From the NCBI RefSeq assembly GCF_058153355.1, contig NZ_CM177019.1: 64,000 nucleotides of DNA; one strand, given 5' to 3'. This document shows positions 7,829-22,639 of this stretch, in pieces. How positions within the stretch are numbered: the first letter of the stretch is position 1; the number at the start of each line of letters is the position of its first letter. A program made the translations under genes and the position numbers. The notes under the pieces are model-generated. The model was given only the letters and a program-made list of their open reading frames with translations. It ran no database searches and was not told the DNA's origin.

Positions 7829-8409
7829 GCGTTAGTTTCTCCACAGACACAAAACGCCACGACGCCCGGAGCTGCACACTCGCGGGCGTCACTCTTTTCT
7901 GGAGCGCAAAAGATTTTGTAGACCAGTGCTGCATGCTCCTGGAGCTTCGAAATTGACAGATACAACTCATCATTAATTACTGTCTGCTCGTGTGGCTCCA
8001 CTACCCCATCTTCGATTGCCGAACGAATCTGCTTTGAGTAACTCCCGATCTGTTCGATGACTTCCAGCAGACGCTGGTTTATATCGGCGTTCTCTACTTC
8101 CTCAATTTCAGGAAGCGATACAAACACCCCACCAGCAGACTGTGCGACAGCATCCGCAATGTAGTGAGTGCCAGCCGCGCGCTGTAAAATCATTGCCCAT
8201 CCCAGCGGGAAAATCTGATCGCCATCTGCACGAAGGCGGTTGAATAAAGCGTTCTCTGTTACATCCAGCCACTCAGCAGCTTCAGCGTAACCTCCCGGCA
8301 ACGCCGCGATAGTTTTTCTGACAGCTTTCACGTACCACTCAGGCTGTTTTTCTACTTTCCAGTGATGCTTACCCACGGCTATCTCCTTAAAACTGTGGTT
8401 ACTTTCCAT
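7825..8409 (-). CDS. Phage regulatory protein, YdaT/CII-like (194 aa)
   Basis: Position immediately downstream of the cro-like gene, as ydaS-ydaT in Rac; family from recollection. Confidence 0.4.
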
Positions 8410-8647
8410 CAGATAAGTCTTTAATCTTTTGAAAAATATCTGGACGTAATTTTTCTTTTGATACGCCAGTGGTCATTTCAATGAATATCGAGAGCTTTGC
8501 AGGGGGACGCTTTTCTCTGTTCAACCAGTTCCAGACATGTTGTTGCTTTACTAAACGACCACTGCTGGCTGTGAGCTTCCGAGCCAATTCTGATTGACCA
8601 CCAGCCAGAGCGATTGCCTCTGATAAGGCTAATTGCTCAGGTGTCAT
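8399..8647 (-). CDS. Cro-like HTH regulator (YdaS-like, 82 aa)
   Basis: Small ORF divergent from the cI-like repressor; AGGAGA RBS upstream. Confidence 0.55.
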   Translation of the reverse strand: MTPEQLALSEAIALAGGQSELARKLTASSGRLVKQQHVWNWLNREKRPPAKLSIFIEMTTGVSKEKLRPDIFQKIKDLSDGK

Positions 8648-8784
8648 AGCTTTCTCCTATCTGTAAGTAGTAAAGTTGTTGATAACTTCGATTATACAAC
8701 TACAACAACTTTTATTACAACTTTTAGATGTTGGAAAGCTAAAACATAAAGTTGTAACCTCAATAAAAACGAGGGGGATATGTT
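8648..8784. promoter_or_regulatory. Immunity-region divergent promoter/operator (OR-like)
   Basis: Repeated AAGTTGT / ACAACTT half-sites; minus-strand TTGTAA-18 nt-TATAAT promoter reading into the cro-like gene. Confidence 0.5.
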
Positions 8785-9471
8785 GTGAAAACATTGGCAG
8801 AAAGACTAAAAAGCGAAAGAGAAAAAGCAGGAATGAGTCAGGCGCAACTAGCTGAAAAAATTGGACTTTCACAACAATCCGTAGCGAAAATCGAGAATGG
8901 AGAAACTCAACAGCCTCGGAAAATTAAAGAGATTGCTAAAGTGTTAGGGGTTTCTCAAAAGTGGTTGCAATTGGGCATTGAGGATAACGCGTCTTTCCCA
9001 AACCTTGTTGTAAAGGAGGCTGAAAGTACAACATTAGATCCTGACATTTTTGCAAACATTCCTGTCCTAGATGTCGAATTATCAGCGGGTAATGGATGTT
9101 TGGCTGAAATAGTTGAATCAACTGTAGACTGGTTCCCGCTAAGAAGGATTGATTTAAGGAAAGCTGGTGTATGTGTCTCCAATGCAAAGATCGTAAAAAT
9201 TTGGGGTAATAGTTTACTACCTGTACTTAACAATGGAGATTTTGTTGCTGTTGATGTTTCCCAAACAGTTCCTATTCGTGATGGGGATCTTTATGCTATA
9301 CGTGATGGCGTATTACTTAGAGTTAAAATATTGATCAATTTACCTGACGGTGGTCTGATTCTAAGAAGTTTCAATAAAGATGAGTATCCAGATGAAATAC
9401 TCACCTTCGAAGATAGGCGTTCCAGAATTCACGTTATAGGTAGAGTATTCTGGTCATCGCGCACTTGGTAA
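8785..9471 (+). CDS. CI-like phage repressor (HTH-XRE plus S24 LexA-like peptidase domain), GTG start
   Basis: 228-aa ORF; N-terminal HTH (QAQLAEKIGLSQQSVAKIENG) and C-terminal domain of the size expected for an S24 peptidase. Confidence 0.75.
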   Translation: MKTLAERLKSEREKAGMSQAQLAEKIGLSQQSVAKIENGETQQPRKIKEIAKVLGVSQKWLQLGIEDNASFPNLVVKEAESTTLDPDIFANIPVLDVELSAGNGCLAEIVESTVDWFPLRRIDLRKAGVCVSNAKIVKIWGNSLLPVLNNGDFVAVDVSQTVPIRDGDLYAIRDGVLLRVKILINLPDGGLILRSFNKDEYPDEILTFEDRRSRIHVIGRVFWSSRTW

Positions 9472-9654
9472 TGCATCAAAAACATTCCTTCAGAAATTTA
9501 GTTACCATTATTACCCGCCTTTTCAATCTTCCTCCCGTGATTTGAGAGTTTCCAATCACGGAAGGAAAGTGTCCATTGTGTAATTAAAAGCGCATCGTCC
9601 ATACAACCTCCTTTTTTGATAACCCTAGCCCCCATTTAACATCCGTCAAAACCA

Positions 9655-9700
9655 CATAAAGTTGTTGACAACAACCAAAACAACAACTAGATTACAACTT
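9655..9700 (+). promoter_or_regulatory. PL-like promoter with overlapping operator palindrome
   Basis: 17-bp palindrome GTTGTTGACAACAAC containing TTGACA, 17 nt spacer, TAGATT; same half-site motif as in the OR-like region. Confidence 0.5.
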
Positions 9701-9803
9701 AAAGATGTTGCAGTAACGAACAGGCAGGACGCCCACGAAGTAGCCGCCGGTGGCGTATGAATGACCGGATGATTCGTTAAATACTATGTGTAAGAGAGCG
9801 CAA

Positions 9804-10006
9804 ATGAACCGTTATTTCACATGCTCGTTTTGTGGCGCAAACGAGCTGCAGGCAAAAAAATCATCGCCAAAGGCGGAAAAGATGAAGTTGCTATCTGCTC
9901 TGAGTGCGTAGTCTTGTGTGTTGGGGCATTAATCAATATCAGCACAACTATTCAGTTCACACCAAATGAGAATGCGCCTTTAGATGCGCGGAAATCTGGA
10001 GGTTAA
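9804..10006 (+). CDS. Small ClpX zinc-binding-domain-like protein; full product needs a -1 shift at the A7 tract 9854-9860 (zero frame stops after 35 codons)
   Basis: Frame 0 gives MNRYFTCSFCGANELQAKK..., the -1 frame continues IIAKGGKDEVAICSECVVLC...; joined product resembles the ClpX N-terminal CSFCGK...YICDECVDLC motif. Confidence 0.4.
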
Positions 10007-10094
10007 AGAACAAAATGAAAGTCCAGATTTTAAACAATAACTGTGAAGTCGTTTGGGCGTAAAACATGACCGCGCGTAGACCAAGGGAGGAAAA

Positions 10095-10272
10095 AGTGGG
10101 AATAGTTAGAAATCAAGCAGATATATTGAAAATCAGCTCTGAATTGCTTGGAGTTTTGAAAAGTGAGCTCACCGCACATGGCATCGAGCCCACTGACGAA
10201 AATTTAAGTTGGGTTTTGTCGATTATTCAACAATCACTCAAGCCCAGCCTCAGCAAACTTTTTATCGAGTAG
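10095..10272 (+). CDS. Hypothetical small protein (58 aa from GTG with GGGAGG RBS; ORF track lists it from an ATG at 10066)
   Basis: ORF only; convergent with and overlapping a minus-strand small ORF. Confidence 0.2.
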
Positions 10273-10425: not shown

Positions 10426-10863
10426 AACTATTTCCTTCTTGGCTATATGAAAACACCAAGATACCACCGAGCCTGAAGTGGTGAAAAGACAGGCACATAA
10501 CAGCTAAGTATTTTCAACCAGAGAGAATCCTTAGCGTTGTGGTGAATGCGGCTCAGCGCACGCGGGTTAAGGTTGAGGTTGACAGTCGACCTTCTGTGGA
10601 TACCCACCCGCCTGGTGTGCAACCTTCGCCAGGCACCGGGAGGCACCCGGCACCACAACTTTATGCTGTGTGTAGTCCTCGCGGTACCAGTTTGTACACT
10701 TGCTTCCGGCTGGTACCGCTCTTTTTACAAAACAGAGAAGGGCATCACCGGACGACGGGCTCATAACCCAATCCATCCGGGCGGCTGCCACCGCAGGTGT
10801 TCTTCTCTGTTTTGTGGAGAAACCAACCGACCTTGCAGGGTCGATATGATGAGGAGCAGCAAA

Positions 10864-15394: not shown

Positions 15395-16618
15395 TCAGTT
15401 TGAATCAGAGATAGTACAATTAACAATCGATTCAACCCTCTTCCACCATGCCAGGTAAGCTTTACGCTGTTCTTCTAGATAATCGCTCTTATCATAAACT
15501 TGCCATACCCCTGGCAGCTTATGACCAAGCATAATTTCTGCGATATGAGGCGCAGTAAGATCAGAAAAATTTGTTCGAGCTGTACGTCTCAAGTCATGAA
15601 GAGACCAATGAGGGAATTGATATCCTAAACACCGCCATGCGTACTGCATTAAATTGTAAGGCAGCGACTGCAATGATGTCCGACCAACGGGTTCCCTGCT
15701 TCCTTCCTTAGTAAAAAGCATATCGGAACCATTGTTCATAGAGATAGCGTACTTTATAAGCTCTTCAACCGGTTCAATAATGGGCCGCTTTAGCGGTTCG
15801 CCTGTTATCTCCCCTGTCTTATGTCGTTCTGGTGGTACAGTCCATACTTTATTAATGAAATCAAAATCGTCCACCCGGGCGGTAATTAGCTCTGAACTAC
15901 GGCAACCAAAATGCAGCAATAGTTTAATGAAGGCCCGGTATTTAGGAACCATTCGAGAACCATCGATCGCAGCATAAAGGATTTTAATTTCATCATGTGT
16001 CAGAAACCGTTTCTTCTGACCTTTACGGATATCCATATCTTTACCCGTGATATCCGACAGCGGGCGAGTTTCAATGAGCTTTCTCTTATACGCCCAGACA
16101 TGGGCCTGCTTTGCGTTAATTAGCAATCGGTCTGCTATTGCTGGAGTCTTAGTGCTAAGAGGCTCCAGGACTTCTAACCAATCATGCAATGTAGCTGCAT
16201 CGTGAGGGATATTCCCGATTTTAGAGAACAGGTGCAGCTCAAACGAGCGAAGTATCTGTTCAGAACCTTTTTTATTTTTTACACAATATGCTTCATACCA
16301 AGCACGGATCACAGACTCTACCGTCATGGCTTCAGTAGCTTTTCGTTTTTCAGCCTGCTTGACCAATCGTGGATTACGGTTTGACTCGAGTTCACCACGA
16401 AGACGGATAACTTCTTCTCTGGCCTCTTTTAATCCAGTTGCCGGGTAAGTTCCGATATCAAGACGCTCACCTTTCCCTGCCCATTGATAACGATATTGGA
16501 ACACTACGCGACCTTTCGGTGATACTCTGACAGACAGACCATCACGATCGGATTTAACCAAAACCTTATCACGTTCCTTTCCAACGACTGAACGCAACCA
16601 CGCATCAGACAGCGCCAT
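15395..16618 (-). CDS. Tyrosine-type site-specific integrase (P4-like family)
   Basis: 407-aa ORF with HDLRRTARTN and LGH...Y catalytic-region motifs and an arm-binding-type N-terminus. Confidence 0.85.
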   Translation of the reverse strand: MALSDAWLRSVVGKERDKVLVKSDRDGLSVRVSPKGRVVFQYRYQWAGKGERLDIGTYPATGLKEAREEVIRLRGELESNRNPRLVKQAEKRKATEAMTVESVIRAWYEAYCVKNKKGSEQILRSFELHLFSKIGNIPHDAATLHDWLEVLEPLSTKTPAIADRLLINAKQAHVWAYKRKLIETRPLSDITGKDMDIRKGQKKRFLTHDEIKILYAAIDGSRMVPKYRAFIKLLLHFGCRSSELITARVDDFDFINKVWTVPPERHKTGEITGEPLKRPIIEPVEELIKYAISMNNGSDMLFTKEGSREPVGRTSLQSLPYNLMQYAWRCLGYQFPHWSLHDLRRTARTNFSDLTAPHIAEIMLGHKLPGVWQVYDKSDYLEEQRKAYLAWWKRVESIVNCTISDSN

Positions 16619-17003: not shown

Positions 17004-17681
17004 TCAGTGTTTACACAGGAGCTGCTCCAGTTCGTGCAACGAAGAAACGGTCCAGGTAGGCGCGATGCCTTCTGGTTGCTCGCGATTGTGCGCATTCAGC
17101 CAGCAGGTCGCAAGCCCGGCGTTGATGCCACCGAGAATATCGGACTCGGCAGTGTCGCCAACCATCAGCACGCGTGAACGGTCAGGATTGCCCGCCTGTT
17201 CCAGCGCATAATCGAAAATTTTCTTATTCGGTTTGGCTACGCCAACTTCTTCGGAAATCACCAACAAATCGAAATAATCACGCAGGCCCGTGCGTTCCAG
17301 ACGCACTTGCTGCAAGGCGCTAAAGCCGTTGGTGATGATGCCGATTTTGGCGTTGCCGCGAATGGCATTAAGCAGGGAAACCGCGCCCGGCAGCGGTGTG
17401 CAAATTTCCGCCATCGCATTAATGAAGGCCTCGTTGAGTTTACCTGGCTCGACGTTCAGCCGTTCGGCCCAGCTCTCAAAACGCCCGTGCTGAAGCTGTA
17501 ATGAAGTGATCGCACCGTTTTGATAATCTACCCACAGGGGCTTGTTAACGGCCTGATAGTCCTGAAAATCTTCAGCGGTAAAAGTGACGCTGTAATCAAG
17601 AAACATCCGCTGCAGGCCGGTGAATGAGTCAAAGGTAAACAGCGTTTCATCGGCATCAAAGAAAATCCAGTCCCACTTCAT
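17004..17681 (-). CDS. yjjG: Pyrimidine 5'-nucleotidase YjjG (HAD family)
   Basis: 225-aa [21 protein letters not shown] motif; synteny with rimI-holD-rsmC. Confidence 0.85.
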
Positions 17682-22317: not shown

Positions 22318-22404
22318 GCGAAGGTGGCGGAATTGGTAGACGCGCTAGCTTCAGGTGTTAGTGTCCTTACGGACGTGGGGGTTCAAGTCCCCCCCCTCGC
22401 ACCA
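22318..22404 (+). tRNA. leuQ: tRNA-Leu (anticodon CAG), copy 1
   Basis: 87-nt sequence gcgaaggtggcggaattggtagacgcg...cttCAGgtg...ggttcaagtccccccctcgcacca with encoded CCA. Confidence 0.9.
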
Positions 22405-22432
22405 AAAACCACGTTGATATTGCTCGCACTGG

Positions 22433-22519
22433 GCGAAGGTGGCGGAATTGGTAGACGCGCTAGCTTCAGGTGTTAGTGTTCTTACGGACGTGGGGGTTCA
22501 AGTCCCCCCCCTCGCACCA
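22433..22519 (+). tRNA. leuP: tRNA-Leu (anticodon CAG), copy 2; one substitution in the variable arm relative to copies 1 and 3
   Basis: Same sequence except gtgttcttacgg instead of gtgtccttacgg. Confidence 0.9.
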
Positions 22520-22552
22520 AACGAGGCGATATCAAAAAAGTAAGATGACTGT

Positions 22553-22639
22553 GCGAAGGTGGCGGAATTGGTAGACGCGCTAGCTTCAGGTGTTAGTGTC
22601 CTTACGGACGTGGGGGTTCAAGTCCCCCCCCTCGCACCA
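22553..22639 (+). tRNA. leuV: tRNA-Leu (anticodon CAG), copy 3
   Basis: Identical to copy 1. Confidence 0.9.

Follow-up and report, generated by a model that had tools for sequence, protein, structure and literature searches.

Relative to the cI promoter PRM, the lambda operators OR2 and OR3 lie at about −42/−43 and −19, respectively, 24 bp apart. In its complexes with DNA, the 434 repressor reads the ACAA found at either outer 5′ end of a site. The operators of phage 434 are 14 bp long and have the form ACAA-N6-TTGT; the repressor contacts the outer 5+5 bp, conservation covers the outer 4+4 bp, and readout of the centre is indirect (PMC1636474). Herein, we analysed a 64-kb stretch of DNA (the window) that carries, at about 8380–9727, the lysis–lysogeny control region, or immunity (imm) cassette, of a lambdoid E. 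coli prophage. The type of switch is ordinary, and for its DNA-binding specificity no earlier description was found.

Genes and promoters of the immunity cassette

The cI-like and cro-like genes diverge from a 137-bp intergenic region (8648–8784), and both the ORFs and their domains agree with the divergent arrangement reported in the initial annotation. The repressor gene (8785–9471, plus strand) starts with GTG and encodes 228 aa with a 434-like HTH and an S24 domain. Pfam HTH_3 was matched over residues 8–57 (E = 1.2e-15) and Peptidase_S24 with E = 1e-13, and the best PDB match was the DNA-binding domain of the 434 repressor (E = 1.2e-14). The cleavage site Ala101-Gly102 and the dyad Ser143 + Lys181, all invariant columns in the alignment, align with A111-G112/S149/K192 of lambda CI and A84-G85/S119/K156 of LexA. 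Searching the C-terminal domain alone against PDB sequences gave spurious matches only and was replaced by Pfam and this direct alignment.

The cro-like gene (8399–8647, minus strand) encodes 82 aa, with the SD AGGAG 8 nt ahead of its ATG. Its product is a YdaS-family HTH protein (Pfam YdaS_toxin, E = 3.6e-14) that matched PHROG 35, transcriptional repressor. Cro of a Xylella prophage (3bd1) was the best PDB relative, a weak one (E = 0.12), and the recognition helix is probably VKQQHVWNW. After cro, the PR side carries a cII-like gene (Phage_CP76), an ORF in the position of a replication gene, Dam, and Q, and the integrase lies on the PL side of the cassette. Most of the examined groups with cI identity of at most 92% have a BRCT gene of 295–296 aa between cI and OL, on the opposite strand to cI; the window holds its remnant (9498–9635, minus strand), from which ~720 bp was lost internally. 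When OL was inspected by eye for a minus-strand promoter of the BRCT gene, no convincing hexamers were seen.

A promoter scan of 8350–9900 revealed two promoter-like sites only, PR and PL, each with hexamers matching at 10 of 12 positions. The PR-like promoter of cro (8691–8720, minus strand) consists of the −35 element TTGTAA (8720–8715), an 18-bp spacer, and the −10 element TATAAT (8696–8691), the latter being kept in relatives. The PL-like promoter (9665–9693, plus strand) consists of TTGACA (9665–9670), a 17-bp spacer, and TAGATT (9688–9693); both hexamers are conserved in relatives, and the spacer is variable. This OL/PL-like region lies about 180 bp beyond cI. For cI, a putative PRM (8731–8760, plus strand) was picked by eye and is under the scan threshold. 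It would comprise TTGGAA (8731–8736), an 18-bp spacer, and TAACCT (8755–8760), with a start near 8767 ahead of the SD GAGGGGGA and the GTG at 8785. The sequence TTGGAAAG is invariant in OR and missing at the corresponding position of OL.

A 62-nt RNA element, supported by covariation and unannotated, was also observed at the start of the PL transcript. This leader matched no Rfam family, and when it was considered as an HK022 put element, its covariance model had no match in HK022 20000–40751.

Half-site clusters and the palindrome at PL

A half-site recurring both between cro and cI and downstream of cI had been described in the initial annotation, and the counts bear this out. AAGTTGT/ACAACTT occurs 14 times in the 64-kb window (8.4 expected), with 6 copies within 8673–8755 and 9659–9700. 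The pentamer ACAAC/GTTGT has an overall density of 2.1 per kb, and the densest 90-bp stretches of the window are OR and OL, with 6 pentamers each, the next having 3. In 200 dinucleotide shuffles, the maximum per 90 bp averaged 2.9 and never exceeded 5. With the half-site core in both clusters and a strong PL-like promoter beside the downstream one, the lambda-like OR/OL layout proposed earlier also stands.

The same annotation had taken TTGTTG-N-CAACAA as the unit from which both clusters are built, and had given a perfect 17-bp palindrome at TTGACA. The palindrome is indeed perfect and overlaps TTGACA, but its length is 15 bp (GTTGTTG-A-CAACAAC, 9661–9675), the next outward pair, A/C, being non-complementary. 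Because the full TTGTTG-N-CAACAA occurs in a single copy, what the two clusters have in common is limited to the half-site core. The best match in OR, TTGTTGATAACTT at 8676, deviates at 3 positions, and allowing up to 3 mismatches gave 46 matches across the window versus 39 expected, indicating chance level.

Four conserved 15-bp candidate operators

Phylogenetic footprinting was carried out with 80 related loci (cI 58–100% identical, including IMG/VR) and E. coli genomes. The sequence comparison suggests that cI would most likely bind four conserved 15-bp sites of the form ACAAC-N5-GTTGT rather than the palindrome at PL. In the window, each of the four has exactly one mismatch to this form.

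In OR, the candidate operator OR-a (ACAACTTTTAGATGT, 8717–8731) is conserved in relatives, overlaps the −35 element of PR by 4 bp, and ends with the first T of the PRM −35 element. Its centre lies at about −40 of PR and −43 of PRM, a position like that of lambda OR2, and in every relative it reads ACAAC-N5-GrTGT. The candidate OR-b (AAAACATAAAGTTGT, 8741–8755) is located in the PRM spacer and touches the −10 element, with its centre at about −19 of PRM, a position like that of lambda OR3. In OL, the candidate OL-a (ACCACATAAAGTTGT, 9651–9665) shares the 12-mer ACATAAAGTTGT with OR-b, ends with the first T of the PL −35 element, and is centred at about −42 of PL; in the group with ~60% identical cI it is perfect, ACAACATAAAGTTGT. 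The candidate OL-b (ACAACTTAAAGATGT, 9694–9708) covers about −6 to +8 of PL. Most relatives have it as ACAAC..G(A/G)TGT, and eight distinct relatives as ACACC..GTTGT; it is never perfect, and the variant L029 has a second mismatch. The position-4 mismatch of OL-b thus switches halves, as expected of dyad-symmetric recognition with tuned affinity, although the relatives share phylogeny and this move may represent just one or two events.

When ACAACNNNNNGTTGT was searched with at most 1 mismatch, 5 matches were found in 64 kb (2.0 expected), 4 of which were in OR/OL. The fifth (10655–10669) falls in an STnc100 sRNA match and does not exceed the number expected by chance (2 per window). Across 48 distinct OR+OL combinations, convergent N5 pairs averaged 1.96 per OR and 1.98 per OL; of all spacings between N0 and N23 in either polarity, this was the only geometry with two matches in both OR and OL. 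All four sites are kept across the range of 58–100% cI identity, except OR-b in the ~60% group. Column conservation was 0.97 at 8704–8762 and 0.94–0.95 in two OL blocks, compared with 0.67 at third codon positions of cI and 0.52–0.57 at intergenic positions outside the sites. The site centres are almost all A/T (TTTTA, ATAAA, TTAAA). With at most 1 mismatch, both the window and the relatives have only two full sites in each cluster instead of three, and neither the PR −10 element nor the start point is covered by a full operator.

A proposed repressor–operator switch

We propose, with a probability of roughly 0.7, that an SOS-cleavable cI acts on 15-bp ACAAC-N5-GTTGT operators, two in OR and two in OL. 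Of this, the analysis shows the genes with their domains, the promoter-like hexamers of PR and PL, the half-site clustering, and that the four sites are conserved and symmetric. The repressor, with its 434-like N-terminal domain, would bind each operator as a two-fold symmetric dimer, its Gln-Gln recognition helix reading the outer pentamers and leaving the A/T-rich centre uncontacted. In a lysogen, cI at OL-b would block the start site of PL, and cI at OR-a would occlude the PR −35 element. From its position at about −43, OR-a could also activate the weak PRM in the manner of lambda OR2, and OR-b at about −19 of PRM could provide negative autoregulation, like lambda OR3. OL-a, at about −42 of PL, may add cooperativity or OL–OR looping. 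Repression would end on RecA-stimulated cleavage at Ala101-Gly102, after which Cro, expressed from PR, would occupy the half-sites that cI uses. The binding, the assignment of PRM, the activating and repressing roles, and the targets of Cro are what we infer here.

Several features of the sequences fit the convergent-dimer model poorly. OR-a and OL-b also admit the reading ACAAC-N8-GTTGG; this 18-bp form fits these two sites only (1.04 and 0.52 matches per locus), not OR-b or OL-a. In the ~60% cI group, OR-b has 2 mismatches at N5 but contains a perfect ACAAC-N7-GTTGT, a form that is perfect solely at that site and in that group. Conserved lone half-sites at the PR and PL cores are likewise unaccounted for by the model.

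Lone half-sites and alternative readings

Four such half-sites were observed. The first, h1 (AAAGTTGT, 8672–8679), corresponds to about +5 to +12 of the transcript predicted from PR and shows 97% column conservation versus 57–72% at adjacent positions. In the PR spacer, h2 (ACAAC, 8696–8700), which abuts the −10 element, and h3 (AACAACTTTT, 8704–8713) are in direct orientation (8696–8713 together); both are kept in all relatives, with 3 variable bases separating them (column conservation 0.52). In OL, h10 (ACAAC, 9683–9687) is conserved and abuts the PL −10 element. The N16 spacing of h1 and h2 is fixed among relatives. Pairing h1, h2, h3, and h10 at N5 with weak partners was rejected, the partners matching at 0–1 of 5 positions.

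These sites raise the alternative that there is no fixed dyad operator, and that the repressor and/or Cro would read single ACAAC(TTT) half-sites, of which there are about 12 in OR and OL, as an oligomer or through flexibly linked domains with mixed spacings and polarities; the 15-bp pairs would then be part of the array. The lone sites are as well conserved as the paired halves, h1 and h3 share the extended ACAACTTT with the strong operator halves, and Gln-Gln opens the recognition helices of both cI and Cro. The fixed spacings of h1–h2 (N16) and h7–h10 (N17), about two helical turns, point the same way, but promoter geometry partly forces them, and promoter or UP-element constraint may explain part of the conservation. 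The convergent N5 pairing is far too regular to have arisen incidentally, with two pairs in OR and two in OL in nearly all 48 combinations, and the OL-b mismatch that switches halves favours dyad recognition. We therefore regard this alternative as unlikely.

It is also quite unlikely that one pentamer serves two dyad polarities, cI binding convergent ACAAC-N5-GTTGT and the YdaS-type Cro binding lone or divergent sites. The helix of Cro also starts with Gln-Gln but would be presented by another fold and another dimer surface. Its sites might bracket the PR and PL cores, as GTTGT-N16/17-ACAAC here, and Cro might occupy GTTGT-N5-ACAAC in the ~60% cI group and in the OL of the present lineage. 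If this were true, PR would have no classical OR1, and the targets of the two regulators would be partly separate while being made of one half-site.

That the operator is the divergent palindrome itself, TTGTTG-N-CAACAA or, in terms of the pentamer, GTTGT-N5-ACAAC, with a dimer on the PL −35 element and spacer and weaker copies in OR, is very unlikely. Besides the perfect 15-bp palindrome overlapping TTGACA, this idea draws on AAGTTGT-N5 (or N4)-ACAACTT, a divergent palindrome near the PR start in the ~60% cI group, and on the extra ACAAC copies that the lineage of the window gained in OR and OL. Against it, the right arm of the palindrome falls in the poorly conserved PL spacer, at 57% column conservation versus 94–95% in the flanking blocks, and is missing from 37 of the 39 distinct OL sequences. 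A perfect palindrome is confined to the lineage whose cI is ≥98% identical, represented by the other two sequences (16 of 81 loci); it combines the right half of OL-a with lineage-specific ACAAC copies in the PL spacer, and an L001-type relative has GTTGTTGACAACATT in its OL, without the palindrome. Among relatives, the averages for divergent N5 pairs were 0.08 in OR and 0.15 in OL, compared with 1.96 and 1.98 for the convergent type, OR has no such unit closer than 3 mismatches, and a 434-like domain is expected to read ACAA at both outer 5′ ends of a site, in convergent polarity (PMC1636474). The operator assignment of the initial annotation is thus not upheld.

Finally, the idea that the repeats are promoter or UP elements, host-factor sites, or slipped CAA repeats is highly improbable: several motif copies do overlap promoter hexamers or spacers, and ACAACAAC, present 3 times in this lineage, could come from slippage, but the 15-bp unit is found beside three different promoters, each time in another register, is kept at 58–100% cI identity while adjacent bases vary freely, gives way to wholly different repeats in SfV (both flanks shared, other cI/cro), and has a half-site fitting the expected target of a 434-like Gln-Gln helix.

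Distribution and significance

This immunity type was found in 71 of 5426 complete E. coli genomes (~1.3%) and in many uncultivated prophage contigs, and is absent from the sequenced phages in INPHARED. A distinct immunity specificity, as predicted earlier, is in agreement with these data, since none of the phage records contains a repressor with over 45% identity to cI and the repeats of SfV differ. The repressor of mEpimmI (PMC11893012) was found to be a different one, and literature string searches with the operator and leader sequences returned unrelated matches only. Neither the operator consensus nor the recognition helix changes even where repressor identity drops to 58%, so the carriers may make up a single broad group with cross-immunity. 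Sequence alone defines the probable operator code of this immunity type, and the general understanding of such switches is unaltered.

Comparison with lambda, 434, and SfV

The cassette resembles lambda in having cI and cro divergent around OR and a second cluster at PL past cI. The S24 residues make cI a LexA-like self-cleaving repressor for which RecA-stimulated cleavage is predicted, and the OR sites lie at about −42/−43 and −19 from the putative cI promoter, 24 bp apart, like OR2 and OR3. Relatives also carry an accessory gene between cI and OL, as lambda carries rexAB. Unlike in lambda, this BRCT gene runs on the opposite strand and is reduced by deletion to a remnant in the window, the predicted operator is 15 bp instead of 17 bp and of another sequence, each cluster has two full sites with no equivalent of OR1, and OL-a and OL-b are 43 bp apart.

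Compared with 434, the recognition helix is SQQSVAKIENG instead of TQQSIEQLENG, with the Gln-Gln-Ser start kept, and the equivalent of 434 Pro-Arg (Arg43) is kept in cI. The solved 434 structures comprise the DNA-binding domain only, and only the N-terminal ~65 residues of cI resemble the 434 repressor. As in 434, the half-site begins with ACAA, the outer pentamers are conserved around an A/T-rich, variable centre, and the OR/OL layout and an S24 C-terminal domain are present. The candidate operator differs in being 15 bp long (5+5+5), that is, ACAA-N7-TTGT. Direct reading of OR and OL revealed no ACAA-N6-TTGT, the nearest form being ACAt-N4-TTGT within OR-b and OL-a. Being 1 bp longer than the 434 operator, the site does not allow the 434 analogy to be transferred geometrically. 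Further differences are two full sites per cluster rather than three, none of them on the PR −10 element, a Cro of the YdaS family instead of the 434 type, and the additional conserved lone half-sites. The site may represent a natural variant of 434 recognition with one extra central bp, which could help in studying spacing and indirect readout in specificity.

Prophages of the SfV/SfII/CPS-53 type (Shigella, E. coli) have both flanks of the cassette in common with the window: the cII/YmfL side up to about 8380 and, from about 9727, the PL leader and the yfdP/Q/R-type early-left genes. Between these flanks, SfV has an unrelated cI/cro pair and repeats of the TTGTACC-N5-GGTACAA type. SfV and the prophage in the window are different immunity types on the same chassis, a classic swap of the imm module.

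Gene content and half-site recurrence

The cI position is occupied by a gene (8785-9471, + strand) for a 228-aa protein with HTH_3 and Peptidase_S24 domains, and the cro position by a gene (8399-8647, - strand) for an 82-aa YdaS-family helix-turn-helix protein. Beyond the cro-like gene come a cII/YmfL-like gene (Phage_CP76), an unassigned 330-aa ORF at the usual place of the replication genes, and the genes for Dam and a Q antiterminator. On the opposite side lie yfdP/Q/R-type early genes and a gene (15395-16618, - strand, opposite to PL) for a tyrosine integrase carrying an Arm DNA-binding domain, with chromosomal genes from ~17 kb. The gene content on both sides indicates that this is the immunity region of a lambdoid prophage, genuine but ordinary. 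Considering that a chromosomal HAD hydrolase gene (17004-17681, - strand) directly adjoins the integrase, the prophage end was placed at about 16.7 kb; further out is a tandem array of three tRNA-Leu(CAG) genes (22318-22639, + strand).

The half-site recurrence claimed in the initial annotation was borne out. AAGTTGT/ACAACTT occurred 14 times in the window, six of them within 8673-8755 and 9659-9700. Over the 64 kb, copies of the pentamer ACAAC/GTTGT were most crowded in the cI-cro intergenic region (OR) and the second cluster ~180 bp past cI (OL), each having 6 in a 90-bp stretch against 3 in the next best; the maximum per 90 bp averaged 2.9 and never exceeded 5 in 200 dinucleotide-preserving shuffles. 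A promoter scan of 8350-9900 returned only two promoter-like sites, a PR-like one (8720 to 8691, - strand; TTGTAA-18-TATAAT) and a PL-like one (9665-9693, + strand; TTGACA-17-TAGATT).

The operator unit

To define the unit, spacings from N0 to N23 in three arrangements were scored over 48 distinct OR and OL combinations. Only the convergent ACAAC-N5-GTTGT yielded about two sites in each of the two regions at practically all loci (means of 1.96 for OR and 1.98 for OL), whereas the divergent N5 arrangement, the polarity assumed initially, gave 0.08 and 0.15, respectively. The four candidate 15-bp operators in the window were OR-a (ACAACTTTTAGATGT, 8717-8731), OR-b (AAAACATAAAGTTGT, 8741-8755), OL-a (ACCACATAAAGTTGT, 9651-9665), and OL-b (ACAACTTAAAGATGT, 9694-9708), each with exactly one mismatch and with almost purely A/T centres. 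Five such 15-mers were found in the 64 kb against 2.0 expected, four of the five in OR and OL. The fifth, ACAACTTTATGCTGT at 10655-10669, is probably a chance occurrence; it lies inside an Rfam STnc100 sRNA match (10506-10728, + strand) that scores 49.8 bits against a gathering score of 47 and sits ahead of yfdP in the early-left region.

Phylogenetic footprinting outlined conserved blocks around these sites. Among 51 distinct modules with cI at least 65% identical, column conservation was 0.97 for both 8704-8762 and AAAGTTGT at 8672-8679, compared with 0.67 at cI third codon positions and 0.52-0.57 for the intervening intergenic bases. In OL, the blocks 9644-9670 and 9682-9708 were conserved at 0.94-0.95, and the 11 bases separating them, within the PL spacer, at 0.57. 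OL-a was perfect in the group with cI ~60% identical. OL-b was never perfect in relatives: most had ACAAC..G(A/G)TGT, eight distinct ones had ACACC..GTTGT, and one variant (L029) carried a second mismatch. Such a shift of the same position-4 mismatch to the other half is what recognition with two-fold symmetry and a tuned affinity would lead one to expect.

The initial annotation was right about the half-site core and the OR/OL layout and chose the wrong palindromic unit. It had built both clusters on TTGTTG-N-CAACAA with a perfect 17-bp copy; that copy, GTTGTTG-A-CAACAAC at 9661-9675, is 15 bp long and the unit occurs once, OR having the left arm only and loose matches across the window being at chance level. 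The right arm falls in the variable PL spacer. Of 39 distinct OL sequences, 2 had the palindrome in perfect form, both belonging to the lineage whose cI is at least 98% identical. The palindrome was created by one of the ACAACAAC copies (at 8702, 9668, and 9680), extra ACAAC copies gained by the window's own lineage.

Predicted promoter control

OL-b covers approximately positions -6 to +8 relative to the PL start, where a bound repressor would be expected to prevent initiation. OR-a overlaps the PR -35 element by 4 bp and shares its final T with the start of a conserved TTGGAA (8731-8736), which with TAACCT (8755-8760) at an 18-bp spacing would form a weak PRM-like promoter before the Shine-Dalgarno sequence and the cI GTG; this promoter was assigned by eye and is under the scan threshold. 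OR-a and OR-b, 24 bp apart, would then sit at about -43 and -19 of the putative PRM, the positions of OR2 and OR3 in lambda. As OR-a does with the TTGGAA, OL-a overlaps the PL -35 element by a single base; it sits at about -42 and may have a part in cooperativity or in looping between OL and OR.

At odds with this scheme, the PR -10 element and start point are not covered by a full operator; conserved lone half-sites occur there instead. These are h1 (AAAGTTGT, 8672-8679, about +5 to +12 of PR), h2 (ACAAC, 8696-8700, abutting the PR -10), and h3 (AACAACTTTT, 8704-8713), with h10 (ACAAC, 9683-9687) abutting the PL -10. The divergent polarity and N16 spacing of h1-h2 were fixed among relatives. 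In the cI ~60% group, a divergent palindrome, AAGTTGT-N5/N4-ACAACTT, lies just past the PR start, and the recognition helix of the related Cro is likewise conserved, VKQQQIWNW versus VKQQHVWNW in the window. Possible roles for the lone or divergent half-sites are as targets of Cro or as third contacts for repressor oligomers; alternatively, they may reflect promoter constraints.

An RNA element in the predicted PL leader

A conserved, structured RNA element of ~62 nt (9715-9780, + strand), present once in the window, begins directly past OL-b, at approximately position +15 in the predicted PL transcript. It was also found downstream of PL-like promoters in ST64B and ZF40 (L088 and L089, both 1599-1672), phages of other immunity types, and in SfV (L084:2669-2742). 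In the predicted fold, an outer stem pairs CGAAC with GATTCG and a small hairpin has the sequence GGC-AGGAC-GCC; the inner hairpin is 5 bp long, and 4 of its pairs vary on both sides. Over 30 sequences, 96.8% of cells were paired, compared with 21-45% in slid controls, and 45 cells were compensatory double changes versus 16 in shuffles, none of 500 reaching the observed value. The predicted structure is therefore well supported. In blastn it was found in 53 phage records, including SfV and mEp460; of the ~30 listed, all but a few lacked an annotation for it. It belongs to no Rfam family, and a covariance-model search of HK022 20000-40751 gave no hit. Candidate roles are a leader/antitermination element or a transcript stabiliser.

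No N-like protein was recognised by Pfam or PHROG among the first two small ORFs of the PL operon, which encode 61 aa (9821-10006, + strand; PHROG 5259; a weak ClpX-type C4 zinc-finger match, E 1.8e-4, under the Pfam cut-off) and 68 aa (10066-10272, + strand; PHROG 15476). In L001-type relatives only, a hairpin and a boxA-like GCTCTTTAACAA follow the element (L001:4640-4690), resembling nutL. Since the window has different sequence and ORFs there, prophages that are otherwise homoimmune may differ in how antitermination of the left operon is arranged.

Relatives and module exchange

Of 5426 complete E. coli genomes, 71 carried the cassette, at ~99%, 85%, and 75% DNA identity. An IMG/VR scan gave 80 loci with repressors 58-100% identical, and none of the phage records encodes a repressor more than 45% identical. 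SfV shares both flanks with the window but differs in the cI/cro pair and the repeats: homology extends across the cII/YmfL gene as far as its start, stops at ~8380, is absent across cro-OR-cI-OL, and restarts at ~9727, right after OL-b, at the leader RNA, which marks the right-hand junction. By this comparison, the cassette is a classic exchangeable imm module with sharp mosaic junctions. The operator strings had no match in the searchable literature and no cultured phage carries the cassette, so the DNA-binding specificity appears undescribed.

Most of the groups examined with cI at most 92% identical carry a BRCT-domain gene of 295-296 aa between cI and OL on the opposite strand (intact at L001:3563-4453 and L082:3167-4054). 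It matches PHROG 3989, of unknown function, and, weakly and partially, the PADLOC candidate PDC-S48 (E 2.4e-7). Its position resembles that of lambda rexAB, which suggests by analogy a lysogen-expressed accessory or defence gene. In the window, ~720 bp are deleted and 34-45 codons remain (9498-9635, - strand). Just past the cI stop, this remnant contains an inverted repeat (9529-9567; 17-nt arms, 88% complementary, 5-nt loop; fold z-score -2.4), also present in L001. Lacking a U-tract, it is not an intrinsic terminator of the canonical kind, though transcription of cI or convergent transcription might still stop there.

Comparison with the 434 repressor

When the repressor was aligned with lambda CI and LexA, its Ala101-Gly102, Ser143, and Lys181 lined up, in invariant columns, with the residues of their cleavage site and catalytic dyad. 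Among solved structures, the N-terminal domain was closest to the DNA-binding domain of the 434 repressor (E 1.2e-14). Its recognition helix reads SQQSVAKIENG versus TQQSIEQLENG in 434; its Gln-Gln and next Lys are invariant throughout the repressor family, and the equivalent of 434 Arg43 is retained. In 434 complexes, Gln28 and Gln29 read the first three base pairs of ACAA, so the conserved ACAAC at the outer 5' ends is what a 434-like domain would be expected to read. The window operator is one base pair longer than that of 434, and no 14-bp 434-type site is present here. The 434 operators are 14 bp, with the outer 5+5 bp contacted, the outer 4+4 (ACAA...TTGT) conserved, and the centre read indirectly (PMC1636474). 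By analogy, the region is 434-like in its working, yet not imm434.
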